This document shows positions 8,649 to 60,630 of a stretch of DNA of 64,000 nt, in pieces. A program made the position numbers and the translations under genes. Positions within the stretch are counted from its first letter, which is position 1; each line of letters starts with the position of its first letter. The DNA is from an uncultured Gammaproteobacteria bacterium (GTDB taxonomy: Bacteria > Patescibacteriota > Patescibacteriia > UBA9934), in NCBI GenBank assembly GCA_964552565.1, contig CAZKGL010000002.1, positions 365 to 64,364 of the forward strand, in the 5' to 3' direction. The notes beneath the pieces were generated by a model that was given only the letters and a program-made list of their open reading frames with translations, ran no database searches and was not told the DNA's origin.

Positions 8649-12716
<4,068 letters not shown>

Positions 12717-12725
12717 AGGATGCGC

Positions 12726-15968
<3,243 letters not shown>

Positions 15969-18664: not shown

Positions 18665-20959
18665 CTATCCTTTTGCCTTGAGGTCTTCTTCCGTCTCCAC
18701 GTCCTCCTCCTCGTCAAACCGCGCAGCTTCGTCTTCATCGTCCGGCAGGTCGGCGTCTTCCTCATCTTCGTCCATCGCCTCTTCCTCGTCCAGTTCGTCA
18801 TCGTCCTCAGGCGGCCGGGTATTGAACTGCGTCGGCTTCCGGCTGCCCTCCGGCGGCCACTCGGTCACGAGGATTTCGCGCGGCTTTGCGCCGTCCTGGG
18901 CGCCGATAATGCCCATCTGCTCCATGAGGTCGATAATGCGCGCGGCGCGGGAGTACCCGATCTTCATGCGGCGCTGCAGGAAGCTCGTCGAGGCCTTGCC
19001 GCTCTCAAGGACGATCTGGATGGCGTCCTCCATGAGGTCGTCGCTGTCCTCCGGGTTCATGGAGACCCCGCCGGACGAGGCGCCTTCCGTAATCTGGTAG
19101 TTGTAGTCCGGCGCGCTCTCGCCCTTCAGGAAGTCGACCACGCGCTCAATCTCCTTTTCGGACAAATACGCGCCCTGCAAACGCCGCGGTTTGCTGATCT
19201 CCGGAGTCGACATGAGCATGTCGCCGCGGCCGAGGAGCTTTTCCGCGCCCGAGATGTCGAGGATAGTCTTGCTGTCGACCTGCGAGGCGACCGCAAAGGC
19301 AAGGCGCGTCGGGATGTTCGCCTTGATGGTGCCGGTGATGACGTCGACCGACGGCCGCTGCGTCGCAAGGACGAGGTGGATGCCGGCGGCGCGGGCCATC
19401 TGCGCAATGCGCACGATGACCGCTTCGACATCGCGCTTGTTCTGGCTCATGAGGTCGGCGAGCTCGTCGATGATAACGATGATGCGCGGCATGCGCTCCT
19501 TCGCCTTCTGGTTGTACGAGTCGATGTCGCGGGCGCCGAACTTCGCCAGGTAATCGAGCCGGCGTTCCATTTCGCGCACCGCCCACTTGAGGGCGTTGAT
19601 CGCCTCGTCCGCCTTGGTGATCGGCGGCACAAGGAGGTGCGGAATGCCCCCGTAGACGCCGAGTTCGACGCGCTTCGGGTCGACCATGATGAGTTTGAGG
19701 TCGTCCGGACCGTTCTGGTAGAGGAGCGAAATGATGATGGTATTCAAACAGACCGACTTCCCGCTGCCCGTCGCGCCGGCGACAAGCATGTGCGGCGCCT
19801 TGTCGACGGAAAGGAGCTGCGTCCCGCCCGAAATGTCTTTGCCGATCGGCGCGGTAAAACTCGTCTTGCGGTGCTGGAACTCCTTCGACTCGAGGAGTTC
19901 GCGAAGGCAGACGCGACCGATGGTCTGGTTCGGGACCTCAATACCGACGAGGGACTTGCCCGGGATCGGCGCCTCGATGCGGATCGGGTGCGCGGCGAGC
20001 GCGAGCGCCAAGTCGTTCTGGAGGGCGACGATGCGGGCGAGTTTGACGCCCTGCGCCGGGCGGAGCGCGTACTGCGACACGGTCGGCCCTACTTTCACCT
20101 CGCTCATCTCGACCGGGATGTTGAACTGGCTGAACGTCTTCACGATGATCTCTTTGTTGCGCTCGATATCGCCTGCCTTTGCGTCCGAGCTTCGGTCGTC
20201 GAGCAGGTCGAACGGGATCTCAATCTTGCGGCGCAGCTTGCTCGTCATGACCTGTTCGGCCGGCGGGACGTACGGCGCTGCAGGCGCCGAGTCTTCTTCC
20301 TCCGGGGACGAATCGGACGCATCAGCCGAATCGGACGCCGCCGACGGCTCCTCTTCTTCGCGCGCCTGCCGTTCCTCGAACGTCTCCCCGTCCTCGACCG
20401 CTTCCTCATCTTCCTTACGACGCATCATGCCAAACAGTGCGAAGGCCGGGGCGAGCAGCGTGCGGAGCGAGGTATTGAGGAGCACGATGACCGACACAAG
20501 GAAGCACGCGCCGGCTAAAATGAGCGCAGCGATGAACCCCATGGATGCCACGAGGAGTGACGACACCAAGAGGCCGAGCCGGCCACCAAAGGCGCTCACG
20601 ACCGCGACGTCGGTGACGCCCGACGCGAAAAGCAGGTTCATGAGGCCGCAGAATGCGACGACAAAGATGCCGAGCGCGAGCATGTTGCGCCAGGTGAGGA
20701 ACCGGCGGTCGCCGATGACGACCGTGGCGCCGATGGCGAAAAAGAGGAGCGGCACGGCGATGCGCGCCAACCCGACGTTCGCAGCCAAGAACCCGTCCAC
20801 GGTGCGGCCGACCTGGCCCGCCATCCCGAAAAACGCCAACAAGAGGATCGCCCCCACGGCAATAAGCCCGATCGCCACAATGCTCTCGCGCACGTCGTCC
20901 CCCACCATCACCTCGTCCTCCTGGTACTTGGGCGCCCTGCGCTTCACCTTTTTGGCCAT
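18665..20959 (-). CDS. ftsK: DNA translocase FtsK (with unusual acidic C-terminal tail)
   Basis: N-terminal TM helices, Walker A (GATGSGKSV), RecA-like motor, gamma winged-helix (FLQRRMKIGYSRAARIIDLMEQMGI), then about 60 aa of D/E-rich tail. Start at MAKKVKRR (ATG 20959). Confidence 0.9.
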   Translation of the reverse strand: MAKKVKRRAPKYQEDEVMVGDDVRESIVAIGLIAVGAILLLAFFGMAGQVGRTVDGFLAANVGLARIAVPLLFFAIGATVVIGDRRFLTWRNMLALGIFVVAFCGLMNLLFASGVTDVAVVSAFGGRLGLLVSSLLVASMGFIAALILAGACFLVSVIVLLNTSLRTLLAPAFALFGMMRRKEDEEAVEDGETFEERQAREEEEPSAASDSADASDSSPEEEDSAPAAPYVPPAEQVMTSKLRRKIEIPFDLLDDRSSDAKAGDIERNKEIIVKTFSQFNIPVEMSEVKVGPTVSQYALRPAQGVKLARIVALQNDLALALAAHPIRIEAPIPGKSLVGIEVPNQTIGRVCLRELLESKEFQHRKTSFTAPIGKDISGGTQLLSVDKAPHMLVAGATGSGKSVCLNTIIISLLYQNGPDDLKLIMVDPKRVELGVYGGIPHLLVPPITKADEAINALKWAVREMERRLDYLAKFGARDIDSYNQKAKERMPRIIVIIDELADLMSQNKRDVEAVIVRIAQMARAAGIHLVLATQRPSVDVITGTIKANIPTRLAFAVASQVDSKTILDISGAEKLLGRGDMLMSTPEISKPRRLQGAYLSEKEIERVVDFLKGESAPDYNYQITEGASSGGVSMNPEDSDDLMEDAIQIVLESGKASTSFLQRRMKIGYSRAARIIDLMEQMGIIGAQDGAKPREILVTEWPPEGSRKPTQFNTRPPEDDDELDEEEAMDEDEEDADLPDDEDEAARFDEEEDVETEEDLKAKG

Positions 20960-43522: not shown

Positions 43523-44437
43523 CTAGTAGTCGCCGACATAGATCGCGGTCAGTGTGTGGCTGTATCCCCCCGACGTAAATCCATTCGCCACGCTCACTTT
43601 TAACGTCACAAAATCGCGCTCCTCGTATGCGTTATTGCTGCGGCTCGCAACTTGCTGCAGCGACGTCGTAATTCCCGTGTCCTGGGTGTCAAACGTCGAC
43701 GACGCAAGCGAGGCATCCGAGGCGCGCGCGCCATACTCGGTTGATCCCGCAGTCACCGTGCCGTCGCTGACGTCCGTGATCGTCGACGGCCCACTAGCGA
43801 GCAAATCTTGGTTTTCAAACAGGTAGACGTTATACCCCTGGCTCACGTCGGCAGTGACCTCCCAGCCGATGACCGCGGTAGAAACCGCGGAGCTGGTAAT
43901 CGTGCCGAAATCAATCGCGTCTCCGGTCAACTCATACACGTAATCGCCCGACCCATCGATAGTCGGCGACCCCCCGTCAAAAAAATCCACGGTAATGACG
44001 GTCGCAGTCACCCCCGTCACCTTGCCGATTGCAGAAACCTGCGATACACCCTCGTCTTGCACGACGAGCACATAGTCTCCGTCGCTGATACCCGTCGTGG
44101 TCGTGACGGTGACGGTCGTCGTCGTCATAGCCGTTACAGCGACCTGTGTCGACCGTTTCTGCGTGAGAACGTCAAAATCCACGATCGGATCATAAATACC
44201 CGCGCGATACCCGTCCGTCACTTGGTATGTGCTCCCCGAGGACGTCCCACCGACCGTGCCAAGGCTGCTTCGGAGTTTATAACTCGCCGATGTCGCCGTA
44301 TCGATCCCACCGACACCGACGGAGTCCCAGAGAATCTGATAGTTCGTCGACGTCATCGCCGCGAACACCGCAGGGATATCAAAAGAAAGTAACGCTAAAA
44401 CTGTCATGGCAATAAGGAAATCCGTACGCCGTGCCAT
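43523..44437 (-). CDS. hypothetical secreted Thr/Ser-rich beta protein (304 aa), first gene of surface-protein operon
   Basis: Signal peptide MARRTDFLIAMTVLALLSFDIPAVFA. Thr-rich stretches. 1-nt gap to the next gene. Confidence 0.55.
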   Translation of the reverse strand: MARRTDFLIAMTVLALLSFDIPAVFAAMTSTNYQILWDSVGVGGIDTATSASYKLRSSLGTVGGTSSGSTYQVTDGYRAGIYDPIVDFDVLTQKRSTQVAVTAMTTTTVTVTTTTGISDGDYVLVVQDEGVSQVSAIGKVTGVTATVITVDFFDGGSPTIDGSGDYVYELTGDAIDFGTITSSAVSTAVIGWEVTADVSQGYNVYLFENQDLLASGPSTITDVSDGTVTAGSTEYGARASDASLASSTFDTQDTGITTSLQQVASRSNNAYEERDFVTLKVSVANGFTSGGYSHTLTAIYVGDY

Positions 44438-44769
44438 ACGACATCCATTTTACCGTCAGCGCTAAGTAAACGAAAGAAAATCGGGTGGATACATGTGGAT
44501 AAAAAAATGGTTCAAAAACCAATCAATCGCTTACCTTCTACATTTTGTCAACTCTAGAGTAGACAAAATATGTATATTATCGACGAGATCCGATCTACTT
44601 TTTGTGGTATGGACACATCATTTGCTCAAATAGTGTGCAACCTACACTAAGATATCCACACATGTTTCATGTGAAACACATGCAAGCATACCTCTTAAAG
44701 ACGCGAAGATTTCGAAAACGTTACACCGAGCCATAACGAAAAAACGACGGGGGTTCCGTCATTTTTTCG

Positions 44770-44845
44770 TGGTGGACCTGAGCGGATTCGAACCGCTGAC
44801 CTCCGCAATGCGAATGCGGCGCTCTACCAACTGAGCCACAGGCCC
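44770..44845 (-). tRNA. tRNA-Ala (anticodon CGC)
   Basis: Reverse complement GGGCCTGTGGCTCAGTTGGTAGAGCGCCGCATTCGCATTGCGGAGGTCAGCGGTTCGAATCCGCTCAGGTCCACCA. G3:U70 alanine identity pair, anticodon loop TT-CGC-AT, encoded CCA. Confidence 0.85.
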
Positions 44846-45161
44846 GTGTGCTCGCTTTCCGACGGATTGCCGTTCGGACTCGCGAATCTGTAAGTGTGCC
44901 GCTCGTCCTCACTTTCATCCGTCGCCGCTCGCGTTCGTCTCGCTTTGCTCGACGACTGGCGCAGGATGAGACAATGTTTCACATGAAACATTATCTAACT
45001 GCCAATTTGCCCATGCAGGTATAGACAAGATTACCCGTACATTCCAGAGCTCAGTAAATGGTCGAGTACAAGGAACGGGATGTTTTTGCCGAGACGTACT
45101 TTGACGTACGTTGAGGCAAAAACAGGGACCCGTGACACAGTAATCGGCCATTTAATGAGCT

Positions 45162-45238
45162 CTGGTGACCTCGGCAGGAGTTGAACCTGCAACCTTGTCC
45201 TTAGGACGGACCTGCTCTATCCAATTGAGCTACGAGGT
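45162..45238 (-). tRNA. tRNA-Arg (anticodon CCU), tentative isotype
   Basis: Reverse complement GACCTCGTAGCTCAATTGGATAGAGCAGGTCCGTCCTAAGGACAAGGTTGCAGGTTCAACTCCTGCCGAGGTCACCA. Perfect 7-bp acceptor, T-loop TTCAACT, loop G-U-CCU-AA. Confidence 0.7.
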
Positions 45239-45353
45239 CGCATGTTCGGCTCATGTGTCGTAAAACACATATCTGCCGGTTGTGCTATACTGAGGTTTCC
45301 GACAACAGAACAAATGCGGTCAAAGTATAGCCTTGGTAATCCCTTTGGTCAAT

Positions 45354-46475
45354 ATGGACATTGAGATCCTCCTGCTCGCGCTCGTGGTCATTCTCGGCGG
45401 AATCGCCATATTTTTTGTCATGCGGACGCAAAACGAACGCACCTCCGCCGTACTCGCGAAGAGTTTGGAGGGCGTCATGGAAAAGCTCCGCCAGGACATG
45501 CTCCTCATGAGCGACCGAGACCGCCAGGAGCTCCAACAGCAACTCGACCGCGTCAATGCGCAGCTCTTTAAAGGAATGAGCCACTCGCAAACGTCCGCAC
45601 AGCAGCAGGCGGAGCAGATGAATCGCATTATCCAAGATGTTACACAGCGACTTGCGACGCTCGACAATACAAACAAACAGGTCCTCGATTTCTCGTCACA
45701 GCTGCAAAACCTCCAGAACATCCTCAAGAACCCGAAACAACGCGGCATCCTCGGGGAATATTATCTCGAGACGTTGCTCAAGAACGTCCTGCCGCCAGGA
45801 AGTTACGAGATGCAGTTCCGTCTGGGCACCGACGAGGAAGGAAAGGAGCTCATCCCGGATGCCGTCGTTCGCGTAAAAGAGAAGATTATCCCCGTGGATT
45901 CCAAATTCTCGCTCGAGAATTACAACCGAATCGTAGACGAAACTGATGCCACCGAGCGCGCGAGACTAGAAAAACTCTTCGTCAACGACCTCAAGAACCG
46001 CATCATGGAAACCGCGAAATACATTAAACCGGAACAGGGGACGATGGACTTCGCGTTTATGTTTATCCCGCACGAAGCGATCTACTACGACCTTCTCGTC
46101 AACAAGATCGGCGCGGTGCAAGAGGAGACCGAAAACCTCATCCAGCGTGCCGCGAGCAAGTACCGCGTCATTATCGTCTCGCCCACGTCATTCCTCGCAT
46201 ATCTGCAGACCGTGTTGCAAGCGCTGCGCGCCCTGAAGATCGAAGAGACCGCGCAGGACATCATCAAGCGCGTCGGCGAGCTGGGAAAACACTTCCAAAA
46301 ATACGCGGAGTATCAAGCAAAGATGGGAAAGAACCTGAGTACGGTCGTCGGCCAGTTCAATGAATCATCAAACGAGCTCCGCAAGTTGAGCAAAGACGTG
46401 CAGCGCATCACCTCGGCGGACGACAGTGGAATGATCGAGGTCGATGAGGTGACAAAACCTCTCCTCACCGAATAG
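45354..46475 (+). CDS. rmuC: DNA recombination protein RmuC
   Basis: N-terminal TM helix, long coiled-coil, C-terminal RmuC nuclease-like domain (FAFMFIPHEAIYYDLL...VSPTSFLAYL). Extended -10 (TGcTATACT) at 45281-45290. Confidence 0.8.
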   Translation: MDIEILLLALVVILGGIAIFFVMRTQNERTSAVLAKSLEGVMEKLRQDMLLMSDRDRQELQQQLDRVNAQLFKGMSHSQTSAQQQAEQMNRIIQDVTQRLATLDNTNKQVLDFSSQLQNLQNILKNPKQRGILGEYYLETLLKNVLPPGSYEMQFRLGTDEEGKELIPDAVVRVKEKIIPVDSKFSLENYNRIVDETDATERARLEKLFVNDLKNRIMETAKYIKPEQGTMDFAFMFIPHEAIYYDLLVNKIGAVQEETENLIQRAASKYRVIIVSPTSFLAYLQTVLQALRALKIEETAQDIIKRVGELGKHFQKYAEYQAKMGKNLSTVVGQFNESSNELRKLSKDVQRITSADDSGMIEVDEVTKPLLTE

Positions 46476-46476
46476 T

Positions 46477-46935
46477 ATGGCCGAACTCCGACGCATCACA
46501 CGCGACATCGTAGGAGGAGTACTCGTCTCACAAGACAACAAAGTGTTTCTTGGACAACATCGCGCAGGAGGCGTGTACCAGGAATGCTGGATTATTCCCG
46601 GCGGAGGAATCGAGGAAGGGGAGTCACAAGAAGATGCGCTCCATCGCGAAATGCTTGAAGAAACTGGCATCGACACTACCGGCTGCCCGATCGAATTCCT
46701 GAATACGGATACTGGCAGTGCAGAAAAAATATTGAAGACGACGGGGGAACGCGTCATCGTCGACATGACGTTTTACGATTTCCGCATCACACTTCCTTTG
46801 ACCGCTGAAAAAATTCCTCCAAGCCCTGACGACGAGCTCGTGCGCTCGCACTGGTATTCCATCGAAGAACTCAAGGGCCTTCGCCTCAGCCCTCCCACAG
46901 AAAAACTCTTCCGCAAAATCGGCTACCTCCCCTAA
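46477..46935 (+). CDS. NUDIX hydrolase
   Basis: Nudix box GGGIEEGESQEDALHREMLEETGI. Confidence 0.8.
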   Translation: MAELRRITRDIVGGVLVSQDNKVFLGQHRAGGVYQECWIIPGGGIEEGESQEDALHREMLEETGIDTTGCPIEFLNTDTGSAEKILKTTGERVIVDMTFYDFRITLPLTAEKIPPSPDDELVRSHWYSIEELKGLRLSPPTEKLFRKIGYLP

Positions 46936-46970
46936 CACAAAACCGGCTCGTGGCCGGTTTTGTGGTTTGC

Positions 46971-47240
46971 TTACTTTTTAAGCGCGGCGTTCAGGCGCGC
47001 GGCGAGGCGCGACTTGGTGCGCGACACGGCGTTCTTCTTGATGACGCCCTTGCCCGCAGCCTTGTCGAGCGCCTGCTCGAGCTTCGGCAGCATCGCCTTC
47101 GCGTCTGCGGCCTTGCCCGCCTCGAGCGCCTTGCGGAACTGACGCTTCATCGAGTCGATGGCGCCTTCGCGAGCGCTGTTGCGGAGTGCGCGGGCTTTTG
47201 CCTGGCGCAGGGCCTTAATGGCGTTTTGGAGATTCGGCAT
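46971..47240 (-). CDS. rpsT: 30S ribosomal protein S20
   Basis: MPNLQNAIKALRQAKARALRN... 89 aa. Confidence 0.9.
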   Translation of the reverse strand: MPNLQNAIKALRQAKARALRNSAREGAIDSMKRQFRKALEAGKAADAKAMLPKLEQALDKAAGKGVIKKNAVSRTKSRLAARLNAALKK

Positions 47241-53949: not shown

Positions 53950-54891
53950 TTACTCTTCTTTCGCCTTCCCATGAAACTGCTTGTACACGCGCTTCAGTTC
54001 TTTGTCGGTGATGTGCGTGTAGACCTGGGTCGTGATGATCGATTCGTGGCCGAGGAGCGACTGGACGCTGCGGATGTCGGCGCCGTTGCGCAGGAGGTCG
54101 GTCGCGAAGGTGTGGCGGAGCGTGTGCGGCGTCACGCGTTTCGTGATGCCGGCCGCACGGGCGTACCGGTCGACGATGCGCTGCACGCTGCGCGGCGTGA
54201 GCGCCTGGCTGCCGCCTTTCTTCGCGCGGTCATGCCGGACAAACAGGAACGGCGCGACGTCGTGGCGGATGGTGAGGTACGCCTTGAGCGCCGTCTTCGC
54301 GTCGTCGGAAAGAAAGACGACGCGGTGCTTGCTCCCTTTTCCCTTCACCGTAAATTCGTCCTGCTTCAGGTTGACCTGCTCAATCTGCAAATTCGCCAGC
54401 TCTGAGACGCGCAGGCCGGTGGAAAAAAGGAGCTCGAGGATGGCCCGGTCGCGCAGGCCGACGATCGACCGATCTTTTGCGGCGATGGCGAGCATCCGCT
54501 TCAGCTCGTCCGCTTCGAGGAAGCTCACATGCCGCCCATCCTGCTTGGCCAACTCGATCTTTTCCGGAGAAAGCGAGGCAATATCGCGCTTGGCGAGGAA
54601 CTTCAGGAAGGCGCGGAGCGCGATGAGGTGGTAGTTTTGGGTCGATTTCTTGAGGCTGTCCTCCTCGCGGCCGGCAAGGTCGCGGTTCAGGAAAAGCCGA
54701 AATTTTCGCACCAATTCAAGCGTAATCTCGTCCGGCTTCTTGATCTTCGCCCAATCGAGGAATCGGCGCAGGTAAAAATGGTAGTTGCGGACCGTCAGCG
54801 CCGACCGTCCACGTTCAATTTCCAAATATTCCAGGAATTGCGTGAGGGAACGTTCCAAGGACAAGGGCATACGCCACATATTGTACGACAC
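53950..54891 (-). CDS. xerD: tyrosine recombinase XerC/XerD
   Basis: N-terminal core-binding (LERSLTQFLEYLEIERGRSALTVRNY) and catalytic R..HxxR..Y (HTLRHTFATDLL...GHESIITTQVYTH). Confidence 0.9.
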   Translation of the reverse strand: MSYNMWRMPLSLERSLTQFLEYLEIERGRSALTVRNYHFYLRRFLDWAKIKKPDEITLELVRKFRLFLNRDLAGREEDSLKKSTQNYHLIALRAFLKFLAKRDIASLSPEKIELAKQDGRHVSFLEADELKRMLAIAAKDRSIVGLRDRAILELLFSTGLRVSELANLQIEQVNLKQDEFTVKGKGSKHRVVFLSDDAKTALKAYLTIRHDVAPFLFVRHDRAKKGGSQALTPRSVQRIVDRYARAAGITKRVTPHTLRHTFATDLLRNGADIRSVQSLLGHESIITTQVYTHITDKELKRVYKQFHGKAKEE

Positions 54892-55005
54892 ACTTGACCA
54901 AGGCGACGAATTCCGCTAGAGTTTGGGCACTAATTCACTGTCGTGCGCCATGGTTTGCGGGTTGAGCACCCCTTTCTGCGACGCTCGAATGCACATCGTC
55001 AGGCT

Positions 55006-55299
55006 ATGCTCAGCAAGAAACAGAAGGAGAACCTCATCAAGAAGTTCGGCACCCATGCGAACGACACCGGTTCGCCGCAGGTGCAGATCGCCCTCCTCAC
55101 GAAGGAGGTTGAGGAGCTCACGAAGCACCTCAAGAACCACCGCAAGGACTTCAGCTCGCGCCGCGGCCTCATCAAAAAGGTCGCCGAGCGCCGCCGCCTC
55201 CTCAAGTACCTGGAGCGCGAAGATGAGAAGGCATACGCGTCGCTGGTCGAAGAACTCGGCCTCAAGCCGTCGCAGCAGACCGCCAAAGCAACCAAGTAA
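55006..55299 (+). CDS. rpsO: 30S ribosomal protein S15
   Basis: MLSKKQKENLIKKFGTHANDTGSPQVQIALLTKEVEELTKHL... Confidence 0.9.
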   Translation: MLSKKQKENLIKKFGTHANDTGSPQVQIALLTKEVEELTKHLKNHRKDFSSRRGLIKKVAERRRLLKYLEREDEKAYASLVEELGLKPSQQTAKATK

Positions 55300-58405: not shown

Positions 58406-59650
58406 ATGCAACCGGCACTCAACATCCCCCTAGCGAGCGCGCCAACAACCCGTCGTGATTATCGACGGGTTGTTGCGCTTTGCCTTGCGGTCGCCGCCGG
58501 GCTGTGTGCCGCAGTACTCGCGTTCCGCATTCCGTTTGCTATGAGTACGACGCTCGGCCTCCGTCCGGAGACCACGGCTGCGAGCATCCGCGTCCTCGTC
58601 ACGCCGGCGAACGTCCGCACGCTCGACGAGCGCCTCGGAACATATGCACCCGCAACCGGCCTGCCGTGGACCATGCGGGACATCATCGCACGGAGTAAAC
58701 GGGAATTCAGCATCCATATCACGAGTGACGGGCAGATCAGTATTACCGTCGACACCCCGCTGCCCGAAGAAGACGCGGCGGCGCTGTCGGCATTCGGCTT
58801 TTCGGCTATTACCGCCGATGCCGTAACCGTCATCGTTCCCGACGGCCTGCCGACGGGGGAGACGGGTCCGTCTTTCCGTGCCGGCGCGCTGCTTCCGACG
58901 TACGACGGCGATCTTCATATTTTTGGCGAAGAAACGGCATCGGCGCCGCTACGGATTACCGGCGGCGGCGTCTCCATCGTTGGCATGGGCATCGCGGAAG
59001 ACGGCATTGCATCCGGACTGTTCGCCCCAAATGGCGCAGCCGTCCTGGCAAAACTCGCAATTCCCGCCGGGTTCCACGATGTCCCGATGATGTGGGAGAG
59101 CCTTTTGCCCGTTGCAGCAACGGCGAAAGCGCTGGACACGCTCCTTGCGAACGGCGGCGCACTCCTCGTGACGGAAGATCGTGATGGTCTTGGGTATTTC
59201 CTGAGTTTTCCGCCCGGCGACCTGACCGTGGAAGAACTCGCAAGCCTTGGGAAGGACATCATGAACCGTCAAACTCTGACTACGCAGGCGTGGACAACGG
59301 AAGACGGGGAGGCGTTCACGGAAATCCGGAGCGCAACCGAAGACATTGCAATCGATATCCGGGCGGAAGAAGCATTTACGCTTATTTCCCTGAGTAACAC
59401 CACGGGCAACCTCATTCGGCTCGCGAAGACACCGAACCTCCTTACGCTTGCGAATAGGGACATTTCCTTGGAAAATACTGAAAAGGTACAGTCAGAATGC
59501 ATGTACCGTGCCCATTCATGGTTCAAAACATCCGTACTTCCTCACGCGGAAGTCGCAGGACTCCTGAACACCAACCACACGCTCGTAACATTCCTCAGAA
59601 ACTTCGAGGAAGTCGCAATAAACGTGAGTAAGATTACGCTCTGTTGGTAA
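58406..59650 (+). CDS. hypothetical membrane-anchored protein (414 aa)
   Basis: N-terminal TM (VVALCLAVAAGLCAAVLAF); no recognisable domains; 1 nt after the pnp stop. Confidence 0.5.
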   Translation: MQPALNIPLASAPTTRRDYRRVVALCLAVAAGLCAAVLAFRIPFAMSTTLGLRPETTAASIRVLVTPANVRTLDERLGTYAPATGLPWTMRDIIARSKREFSIHITSDGQISITVDTPLPEEDAAALSAFGFSAITADAVTVIVPDGLPTGETGPSFRAGALLPTYDGDLHIFGEETASAPLRITGGGVSIVGMGIAEDGIASGLFAPNGAAVLAKLAIPAGFHDVPMMWESLLPVAATAKALDTLLANGGALLVTEDRDGLGYFLSFPPGDLTVEELASLGKDIMNRQTLTTQAWTTEDGEAFTEIRSATEDIAIDIRAEEAFTLISLSNTTGNLIRLAKTPNLLTLANRDISLENTEKVQSECMYRAHSWFKTSVLPHAEVAGLLNTNHTLVTFLRNFEEVAINVSKITLCW

Positions 59651-59653
59651 GAA

Positions 59654-59725
59654 TGTGGATAACATGTGTTTTCTACACAAGTTATCCACAAGCATACACA
59701 AAACTTGCGCAGAAAATTATCCACA
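59654..59725. promoter_or_regulatory. cluster of three perfect DnaA boxes (TGTGGATAA, TTATCCACA, TTATCCACA) in an AT-rich intergenic region; oriC-like or DnaA-regulated element
   Basis: Exact consensus 9-mers at 59654-59662, 59682-59690, 59717-59725. AT-rich DUE-like tract 59726-59800. Further TCCAC-containing degenerate boxes downstream. Confidence 0.5.
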
Positions 59726-60258
59726 AGTGCAAAAAACTATTTATTTACAAAGCATTTGTGCTGTTTACAATAGTTGTTCAACGTCATACAATATTTTTGT
59801 GAACGTCATGCTCTTTCCACAAAACCTCTAGACCCCTGAACGAAGCATCGATCAGGGATGACATAGGGGAAGTTCCCCGAAGCCCCCACATTTCCAGCTT
59901 CGGGGAATACCTCACTGCTTTACTCTCCATCTCCAGGGGGAACTTCGCTGAGCGACCTGTACGTGCACCGCACGCAAGGAAGCCCATGCAGGGTAGAGCA
60001 GGTCGTCAACGCGAAACGCTGTTGACGCCGATCAGACGGTGAGTAGTCCATTCGACGATGTCGAGTCGACTACCCACCGCCTGAGCGCGGTGTCCGGCAA
60101 TCGCCCTACTGAGGGTAGCGCATCACAACCTGTTCCGCAGGACATATTTTTTCCACGTCCACCACGTGTCCACTTGCCTGCAAGAACAGCACTCGCGCTC
60201 CCTCTTTTCAATTTCCGACAGTTTGTTATAGTGCCGAGACTTGCACTTTATTTTCTTT

Positions 60259-60630
60259 ATGAAGAGCCAACTTTTGGACCAACTGAAGGCCCAGCTCTCG
60301 GCAGAAAAGCAGAAACTCGAAGCCGAGCTTGCAAATATCGCCCACCGCACGCAAAACACCGGGGGGGATTTTGATGCGGACTTTCCGTCACACGGCGACA
60401 AAGAAGACGAGAATGCTGCGGAAGTTGCGGAATTCAGCGACAATCTTTCTTTGGAAAGCGAACTCGAGTCCGCGCTGAAGGATGTAAACTCCGCATTGAA
60501 GGCGATCGACACCGGTTCATACGGCAAGTGTAAATACTGCCAGAATGAAATTGATGTCCAGCGCCTCATGGCCCGCCCGACCTCCACGTCGTGCATCGCC
60601 TGCAAGAAAACGCTGACACAGGAAGTCTAG
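60259..60630 (+). CDS. DksA/TraR-family C4 zinc-finger protein
   Basis: Coiled-coil N-terminus, CKYCQNEID...CIACK four-Cys finger, 123 aa. Start could also be the TTG at 60241. Confidence 0.7.
   Translation: MKSQLLDQLKAQLSAEKQKLEAELANIAHRTQNTGGDFDADFPSHGDKEDENAAEVAEFSDNLSLESELESALKDVNSALKAIDTGSYGKCKYCQNEIDVQRLMARPTSTSCIACKKTLTQEV

Follow-up and report, generated by a model that had tools for sequence, protein, structure and literature searches.

Conserved parts of the gap upstream of dksA

The 64,000-nucleotide (nt) stretch of contig CAZKGL010000002.1 analysed here, which we call the window, contains an intergenic region of 608 bp (59651-60258) between a gene for a 414-amino-acid (aa) protein and a dksA/traR-like gene. 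This region is termed the gap below. A preliminary description had presented it as a candidate chromosomal origin (oriC), with a DnaA-titration site, a DnaA-regulated promoter or a small RNA as the fallback. Contig look-ups for homologues of both gap-flanking proteins yielded nine further loci, and the comparison set consisted of 10 distinct homologous loci (the window and the nine others, 204 kb together). They were divided into group A (n = 7: the window, L028, L005, L002, L029, L024, and L037) and group B (n = 3: L033, L035, and L040). L040 derives from Candidatus Uhrbacteria RIFCSPHIGHO2_01_FULL_63_20 (GCA_001791045.1), and names attached to close DksA homologues assign the source of the window to Candidatus Uhrbacteria (Patescibacteria/candidate phyla radiation, CPR). 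The gene order rpsO-NYN-pnp-unknown-(gap)-dksA-lspA-comM was kept in all ten loci. The gap was 566-684 bp long in the nine further loci, and in all ten it contained four parts in the same order: two or more exact DnaA boxes, an A+T-rich spacer that varies, a predicted sigma70-type promoter, and a region for an RNA of 350-400 nt. The window gap had 84% nucleotide identity with the gaps of L002 and L005; the upstream protein of the window was merely 48-52% identical to that of L002 or L005. The features preceding dksA in the window are as follows.

59654-59662, minus strand: DnaA box 1, exact TTATCCACA (reading TGTGGATAA on the plus strand), 3 nt past the stop codon of the 414-aa gene
59669-59677, plus strand: weak DnaA box TTTTCTACA with two mismatches, from sequence reading
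59682-59690, plus strand: DnaA box 2, exact, within the block CACAAGTTATCCACA that is invariant in 7/7 group-A loci
59717-59725, plus strand: DnaA box 3, exact, altered to CTATTCACA in L002
59726-59763, no strand: A+T-rich spacer, conserved in length and least conserved in sequence in the group-A alignment
59764-59792, plus strand: sigma70-type promoter TTTACA-17-TACAAT of the RNA gene, predicted by consensus scan, with the block CTGTTTACAATAGKTGTTCA invariant in group A
59799-60152, plus strand: unclassified structured non-coding RNA gene of about 354 nt, its start predicted from a conserved G and its end from a T run
60205-60232, plus strand: second promoter-like site TTTTCA-16-TGTTATAGT, assigned by consensus scan to the dksA/traR-like gene

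The three exact DnaA boxes described earlier at 59654 (minus strand), 59682 (plus strand), and 59717 (plus strand) were found at these positions, within 72 bp, and a fourth, weak box (TTTTCTACA) had been overlooked. Six bp separate this weak box from box 1, to which it is oriented head-to-head, and 4 bp from box 2, to which it is oriented head-to-tail. In the window, the minus-strand box 1 is thus followed by three plus-strand boxes (weak box, box 2, and box 3) at intervals of 6, 4, and 26 bp, and the orientations reverse, weak forward, forward, forward are those of group A. The clustering was not random: the 64-kb window contains four exact boxes against 0.11 expected, no dinucleotide-preserving shuffle reached four, and three of the four fall within these 72 bp. 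Across the ten loci (204 kb), 24 of the 29 exact boxes were located in this gap; of the five found elsewhere, three flank dnaA in L029. Two additional degenerate boxes near the downstream end of the gap, gtccaccac and tgtccactt (about 60158-60185), were not conserved in the homologous loci, and the proposed box tttccacaa (59814-59822) turned out to be part of the conserved 5′ tail of the RNA, not a DnaA box.

Box 1 is exact in the window, L028, L005, L002, and L029 and degenerate (GGGGGATAA) in L024 and L037. The weak box departs from the consensus at a single position in four loci (L029 and L002, TTTTCCACA; L024 and L037, TTATCCCCA). Between the upstream stop codon and the predicted RNA start, 155 bp could be aligned nearly without gaps for the seven group-A loci. 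The invariant blocks of this alignment coincided exactly with the boxes and CTGTTTACAATAGKTGTTCA, the spacers between them being variable, and the start of box 3 lay 45-46 bp ahead of the conserved promoter block CTGTTTACAATAGKTGTTCA in all seven loci. The group-B boxes are arranged as two reverse boxes 22 bp apart in L033 and L035, and as reverse, 7 bp, forward (one mismatch), 6 bp, reverse in L040. Common to all lineages were at least two exact boxes, not their orientation or their distance from the promoter.

Domain IV of DnaA from the relative L029 was aligned to that of the Escherichia coli protein (PDB 1J1V), and the PRQ and GGRDHTT..HA motifs were kept. Since these are the DNA-reading motifs of the E. 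coli protein, the E. coli box consensus seems to be a fair proxy in this lineage. The kept motifs, together with the finding that exact boxes occurred otherwise almost only around dnaA, suggest that DnaA binds the gap boxes.

A 23-nt inverted repeat (window 59647-59697, 83% complementarity) has boxes 1 and 2 as its cores. In L005, a spacer change is matched on both repeat arms (GTGT/ACAC to GTGA/TCAC). Selection may therefore act on the palindrome as such, which would serve as a symmetric site for a protein or form a hairpin at the 3′ end of the upstream mRNA.

With regard to base composition, the A+T-rich stretch of roughly 75 bp after the boxes was confirmed (73% A+T over the 75 nt at 59731-59805). 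The description of the entire 600-bp gap as AT-rich applied to 59651-59798 (31% G+C) but not to the remaining ~350 bp (56% G+C); the G+C content of the window is 62%. The predicted group-B promoters were TTGACT-17-TAGTAT (L033), TTGACA-17-TAATAT (L040), and TTGACC-17-TATCAT (L035, from sequence reading). A G residue was located exactly 7 nt past the −10 hexamer in 10/10 loci on reading the sequences, corresponding to G59799 in the window, and we infer that the RNA starts at this residue. In the second promoter-like site, ahead of dksA, the block TCTTTTCA...TTTGYTATAGTG was conserved, and analogous sites were found in L033 and L040.

A conserved structured RNA matching no catalogued family

The region downstream of the predicted promoter is organized in the window as follows.

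59799-59833, plus strand: 5′ tail of the RNA, ~35 nt, single-stranded in the predicted fold
59834-59857, plus strand: hairpin P1 of the predicted structure
59866-59913, plus strand: P2, with CCCCAC in the loop
59873-59883 and 59897-59907: GC-rich hairpin TTCCCCGAAGC/GCTTCGGGGAA
59915-59930 pairing with 59986-60001, plus strand: P3
60006-60125, plus strand: 3′ domain, including a long hairpin at 60033-60083
60129-60152, plus strand: hairpin CCTGTTCCGCAGG plus T run, resembling a weak terminator and probably marking the 3′ end of the RNA

The RNA measures ~354 nt in the window, and its group-B counterparts reach ~400 nt. The window sequence from the promoter to the T run folded with −146.7 kcal/mol (z = −6.1 versus shuffles), and L033 alone folded to the same P2/P3 layout (z = −5.3). 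The hairpin TTCCCCGAAGC/GCTTCGGGGAA, already pointed out among the GC-rich hairpins of the gap, was recovered at the coordinates listed above. RNAalifold analysis of group A gave 90 pairs, 19 of which showed two-sided compensatory changes. In these pairs, 94.1% of the alignment cells were paired, compared with 38-43% when the partners were slid by 1-3 columns, and none of 500 shuffles matched the observed pairing, double-change count, or covariation score. Two helices were aligned across both groups, namely P2 (59866-59913) and P3 (59915-59926 with 59990-60001); here, 97.8% of the cells were paired versus 46-56% after sliding, and two-sided changes were observed in 11 of the 27 pairs. The tests comprised ten sequences of one lineage, and the alignments tested had also served to derive the structure, so that the controls by sliding and shuffling are to be read as supportive and not as a formal proof. 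The terminator-like hairpin was kept in group A with both one-sided and two-sided changes, and its T run is missing in L024, L037, and L029.

Stop codons were present in all six reading frames of 10/10 sequences, and 40 of the 49 indel runs were not multiples of three. Therefore, the RNA region is not coding, and its conserved structure is that of a non-coding RNA. An nhmmer profile built for the RNA gave a single match in each locus and no second one in the rest of the window.

Rfam 15 yielded no match to a known family in the gap: with gathering thresholds, only tRNAs were detected in the window and seven loci, and at E ≤ 10 the gaps of the window and L033 gave only chance matches of the microRNA (miRNA) and histone types. 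ARAGORN detected no transfer-messenger RNA (tmRNA) and no tRNA-like domain in the RNA, and no similarity to plasmids or phages was found. Targets complementary to the conserved 5′ tail were sought within the window, where the only one was the RNA gene itself. Our search of the literature on structured RNAs of Uhrbacteria and CPR bacteria and on CPR origins returned nothing relevant. Thus, the RNA is an unclassified structured RNA that matches no catalogued family and is restricted to Candidatus Uhrbacteria as far as sampled.

Several known classes were also considered, and all were rejected. For RNase P, tmRNA, signal recognition particle (SRP) RNA, 6S RNA, CsrB-like RNA, PNPase-linked Y RNA, and transposon-associated guide RNA, no covariance model scored. 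Two short resemblances, AGGAAGCCCAUGC to the CR-I motif of RNase P and AAGGAAGC to helix 8 of SRP RNA, were not conserved among the homologues.

The RNA is comparable to OLE, raiA, ROOL, and Ms1/6S (Rfam) in appearing as a stand-alone gene of several hundred nt, with multiple helices, covariation support, and restriction to a lineage. It differs from them in that it has no sequence or structure match to any of these families, is preceded by DnaA boxes, and was found in Candidatus Uhrbacteria only, as sampled.

Origin, promoter control and other readings of the DnaA boxes

The origin proposal was evaluated on the basis of GC skew, the location of dnaA and dnaN, and the layout of the gap. GC skew had the same sign on both sides of the locus in 7/7 loci with flanks (the window and six relatives), i.e., no sign change was observed at the locus in any of them. 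The left and right values were +0.17 and +0.17 in L024 and +0.14 and +0.15 in L037. The third-codon skew of L024 was +0.31 on the left and +0.39 on the right, and it was positive for the minus-strand genes on each side too. The skew of the window itself was weak and mainly coding-strand dependent, and the origin test thus rests mainly on the strongly skewed relatives.

The skew also differed between lineages. Syntenic blocks of the same orientation showed about +0.15 to +0.19 in L024 and L037 (20 kb each), and weakly negative or near-zero values in the window, L029, L033, and L035. This contrast indicates either that the block is located on different replichores or that the skew strength varies greatly between Uhrbacteria lineages.

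dnaA and dnaN were absent from the 64-kb window, as had been stated before; this was confirmed by tblastn with related DnaA and DnaN proteins. In six relatives (L024, L028, L033, L035, L037, and L040), neither gene was found in the 10 kb on either side of the locus, the right-hand flank of L028 reaching 8.7 kb. In L029, dnaA is located 8 kb to the right of the locus and has box clusters of its own. The rpmH-dnaA spacer (L029 17703-17929) contains two exact boxes and one single-mismatch box. The dnaA-dnaN spacer (19316-19573) contains CTATCCACA, TGTGGATAA, TTATCCCTT, and TTATCCCCC, followed by TTA CTG TTA CTA (DnaA-trios as defined in PMC8235120) and, immediately ahead of dnaN, an A+T tract. 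Such a layout is conventional for an origin, and on sequence grounds we propose this region of L029 as a candidate oriC for Uhrbacteria.

If the gap were the chromosomal oriC, or half of a bipartite origin, DnaA on the boxes would unwind the adjoining A+T tract. The three exact boxes and one weak box in 72 bp do form a cluster of the origin kind, as strong as those flanking dnaA in L029, and it stands beside a tract of 73% A+T. The forward boxes of group A point toward this tract; box R1 of E. coli likewise points toward its DNA unwinding element (DUE). The L029 locus is just 8 kb from dnaA, and to our knowledge no origin of a CPR bacterium has ever been mapped experimentally. However, the part of the tract that is conserved corresponds to the −35/−10 promoter, and the 38 bp beside box 3 are the least conserved and contain no shared repeats and no shared array of DnaA-trios. 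The box orientation flips in group B, and in L040 a terminator hairpin splits the boxes from the A+T tract. Taken together, the skew, the location of dnaA and dnaN, the conventional layout carried by the L029 dnaA-dnaN spacer itself, the box orientation, and the L040 terminator make oriC unlikely, and we regard it as highly improbable that the gap serves as an origin. Compared with bacterial oriC regions, the gap shares the consensus boxes beside an A+T-rich tract but lacks a skew switch, linkage to dnaA/dnaN in most relatives, and a conserved DnaA-trio or 13-mer array; its A+T tract is a conserved promoter, and its box orientation is not conserved. The headline of the preliminary description was therefore not supported, and the case serves as a warning for origin prediction in uncultured genomes, where box counts and an A+T tract would mis-call such a locus as oriC.

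The fallback of that description agreed with the data, as the boxes are located 45-46 bp from the predicted promoter of a covariation-supported RNA. We propose as the probable interpretation that the gap is a lineage-conserved composite module, in which a non-origin, high-affinity DnaA site controls or accompanies the transcription of a new structured RNA. The boxes are in a fixed register with the promoter, the distance being 45-46 bp throughout group A and 92 bp in both L033 and L035, but 72 bp in L040. These fixed distances, maintained despite divergent spacers, suggest DnaA-dependent control of the RNA promoter, i.e., that DnaA binding alters its transcription. In the proposed mechanism, the boxes are placed right after the last gene of the rpsO-NYN-pnp-unknown operon, and DnaA, as an initiator and transcription factor, would occupy those of high affinity and modulate the firing of the RNA promoter. 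Transcription would start at G59799 and end near 60152, producing a highly structured non-coding RNA of ~354 nt. The RNA level would follow the level or activity of DnaA, and hence growth and replication status, and the second promoter would serve dksA-lspA-comM. The same binding would make the locus one of the few strong DnaA sinks on the chromosome.

Several observations weigh against this composite module. The boxes, at about −145 to −75, leave both the −35 and the −10 element free, so that a simple occlusion mechanism is not evident. The box number, orientation, and promoter distance differ in group B, the boxes being 92 bp from the −35 element in L033 and L035 and 72 bp in L040. In L040, a 13-pair terminator-like hairpin separates the boxes from the promoter, and a stand-alone DnaA-binding site therefore fits this locus better than a promoter-proximal operator. 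The RNA terminator is weak and not kept in every lineage, and read-through into dksA is thus possible. The RNA promoter, the RNA ends, and the occupancy by DnaA are all predictions.

The main rival to promoter control is a stand-alone DnaA-control site, with the RNA nearby only by coincidence. Such a site would either titrate DnaA, like datA and the Bacillus subtilis clusters, or reactivate ADP-DnaA like the DnaA-reactivating sequences (DARS). This fits with the near-confinement of exact boxes to the gap locus and dnaA, with the conservation across lineages of at least two exact boxes but not of orientation and promoter distance, and with the terminator-like hairpin between boxes and promoter in L040. 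The group-A arrangement of reverse, 6 bp, forward, 4 bp, forward also resembles the DARS core, in which box II faces box I head-to-head across 5 bp and is co-oriented with box III (PMC6868365). DnaA titration on the chromosome is experimentally supported in E. coli (PMC12371093). On the other hand, the gap holds only 2-4 boxes, L033 and L035 have no head-to-head pair, and the box-promoter distance is constant within group A (45-46 bp in all seven loci) and identical in L033 and L035 (92 bp); such constancy despite divergent spacer sequence argues that the boxes and the promoter form one unit. DARS and datA are not known outside E. coli and close relatives. A role as a stand-alone sink or DARS-like site alone appears rather unlikely, and the two roles are mutually compatible.

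Two further possibilities concern the RNA itself. It could be a long 5′ leader, e.g., a riboswitch or a protein-binding leader, of dksA-lspA-comM, with the boxes regulating that operon. The RNA is indeed located directly upstream of dksA on the same strand in 10/10 loci, its terminator-like element is weak and has no T run in L024, L037, and L029, and on sequence reading there are two conserved CCUC segments with which the GGGG at 59866-59869 could pair, which hints at alternative structures. However, dksA has a conserved promoter-like site of its own downstream of the RNA in the window, L033, and L040, and this site includes conserved blocks in group A. The synteny is never broken in the sample, and the association of RNA and dksA is therefore uninformative. 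A multi-domain RNA of 350-400 nt also exceeds almost all known leaders. The leader interpretation is given very little weight. Just as improbable is a very divergent member of a housekeeping class missed by Rfam, e.g., a 6S/Ms1-like RNA that binds RNA polymerase. A single copy, conservation in the lineage, strong promoter-like elements, and the adjoining gene for an RNA-polymerase-binding factor (dksA) would suit this idea, and 6S-type RNAs escape homology searches outside well-sampled phyla. It is opposed by the absence of any Rfam family match at E ≤ 10 in the window or L033 beyond the chance miRNA- and histone-type matches, by the lack of a detected tRNA-like domain, and by the predicted fold, which is multi-branched with a ~35-nt single-stranded 5′ tail and not a rod with a central bubble and paired ends.

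The composite module was then compared with known DnaA sites. DnaA of E. coli has a compact regulon, determined by chromatin immunoprecipitation sequencing (ChIP-seq), with RNA-metabolism genes among its members, and the protein favours box pairs a short distance apart (PMC11317965). Close pairs occur both there and in the gap, where 4 bp separate the co-oriented weak box and box 2, compared with 2-3 bp in E. coli (PMC11317965). The DnaA-regulated promoters of E. coli (dnaA, mioC, nrdAB, and others) also have, like the gap, high-affinity 9-mer boxes upstream of a sigma70 promoter. The gap differs from them in that its target is a structured non-coding RNA gene in a CPR bacterium, its boxes are not over the promoter, and it is known here from sequence. 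DARS1 and DARS2 of E. coli are non-origin intergenic sites, as is the gap, and have a three-box core whose first two boxes are head-to-head (about 5 bp; 6 bp in group A) and whose second and third are co-oriented, a layout that the group-A gaps resemble. In contrast, box II of DARS1 is the consensus box, whereas the middle box is the weakest in the gap, and the DARS layout is absent in L033 and L035, which have two reverse boxes 22 bp apart. Like the gap, datA of E. coli and the DnaA-box clusters of B. subtilis consist of consensus boxes grouped between genes at a distance from oriC, where they would sequester DnaA; datA has five boxes compared with 2-4 in the gap, and the gap has a fixed spacing to a promoter. 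The B. subtilis clusters hold more boxes than the gap.

Non-origin DnaA sites have been well studied only in a few model bacteria. They are an already known kind of site, and what is new here is the attachment of an unclassified RNA family to DnaA sites outside oriC. A cluster of consensus DnaA boxes has been kept across a CPR lineage, and its partner is an RNA of ~350 nt, not a protein gene. If DnaA controls the RNA, this locus would give a handle on tying RNA-level functions to the replication cycle in very small genomes with few regulators, and it would add a new class of structured RNA for structural and functional study. A more far-reaching and quite doubtful version is that the gap is a replication-control module specific to Uhrbacteria or CPR bacteria, in which the strongest DnaA site apart from dnaA drives an RNA that feeds back on initiation. 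The RNA may then bind DnaA or the replisome, or it may couple a DARS-like reactivating site to transcription. If true, this would be an RNA arm of the DnaA cycle without a described counterpart.

Flanking genes and other boxes in the window

The two genes flanking the gap are the following.

58406-59650, plus strand: upstream 414-aa gene, whose start adjoins the pnp stop codon; no Pfam family
60259-60630, plus strand: dksA/traR-type C4 zinc-finger gene (Pfam PF01258), the first gene of dksA-lspA-comM

By Pfam scan, the upstream operon consists of rpsO, a gene with an NYN domain, pnp, and the 414-aa gene, and the downstream genes are the dksA/traR-type gene, lspA, and comM. The gene after pnp has no Pfam family in any of the loci; it encodes 355-433 aa, and its start codon adjoins the pnp stop codon throughout. 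A search of 5.8 billion proteins found just four homologues of the 414-aa protein, with P0002-P0004 among the homologues, and the family may be specific to this lineage. A scan of the JGI metagenomes with the alignment of this protein detected no relatives. Similarly, exact 18-mer scans of the GTDB genomes (CATGCAGGGTAGAGCAGG) and the JGI metagenomes (CACTGCTTTACTCTCCAT) returned chance matches only, which were not accompanied by other motifs of the RNA.

An orientation switch is located at about 54900 of the window, between an xerC-like gene (53950-54891, minus strand) and rpsO (54943-55299, plus strand). To the left of this position, long open reading frames of gene-like codon composition are mostly on the minus strand, and the genes from rpsO to comM are on the plus strand. 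The divergence of xerC and rpsO was also observed in relatives, and no skew change was found there in L024.

The fourth exact DnaA box of the window is located in an island of low G+C content at 44000-47000 (0.51-0.54 versus about 0.63). Boxes were found in this island at 44484-44502 and 44652-44660; the exact box stands beside a GGTGGATAC half-match, about 50-65 bp upstream of a minus-strand gene for a 304-aa protein without a Pfam family, and ATATCCACA is present too. Two minus-strand tRNA genes, tRNA-Ala(cgc) and tRNA-Arg(cct), are located in the island as well, and two copies of a near-perfect palindrome, TGTTTCAYRTGAAACA, flank the tRNA-Ala gene (near 44664-44682 and 44975-44993).

In L039, a Y1 (IS200/IS605-type) transposase gene was called right after comM (12555-13157); it is uncalled in the otherwise matching NCBI contig L040.

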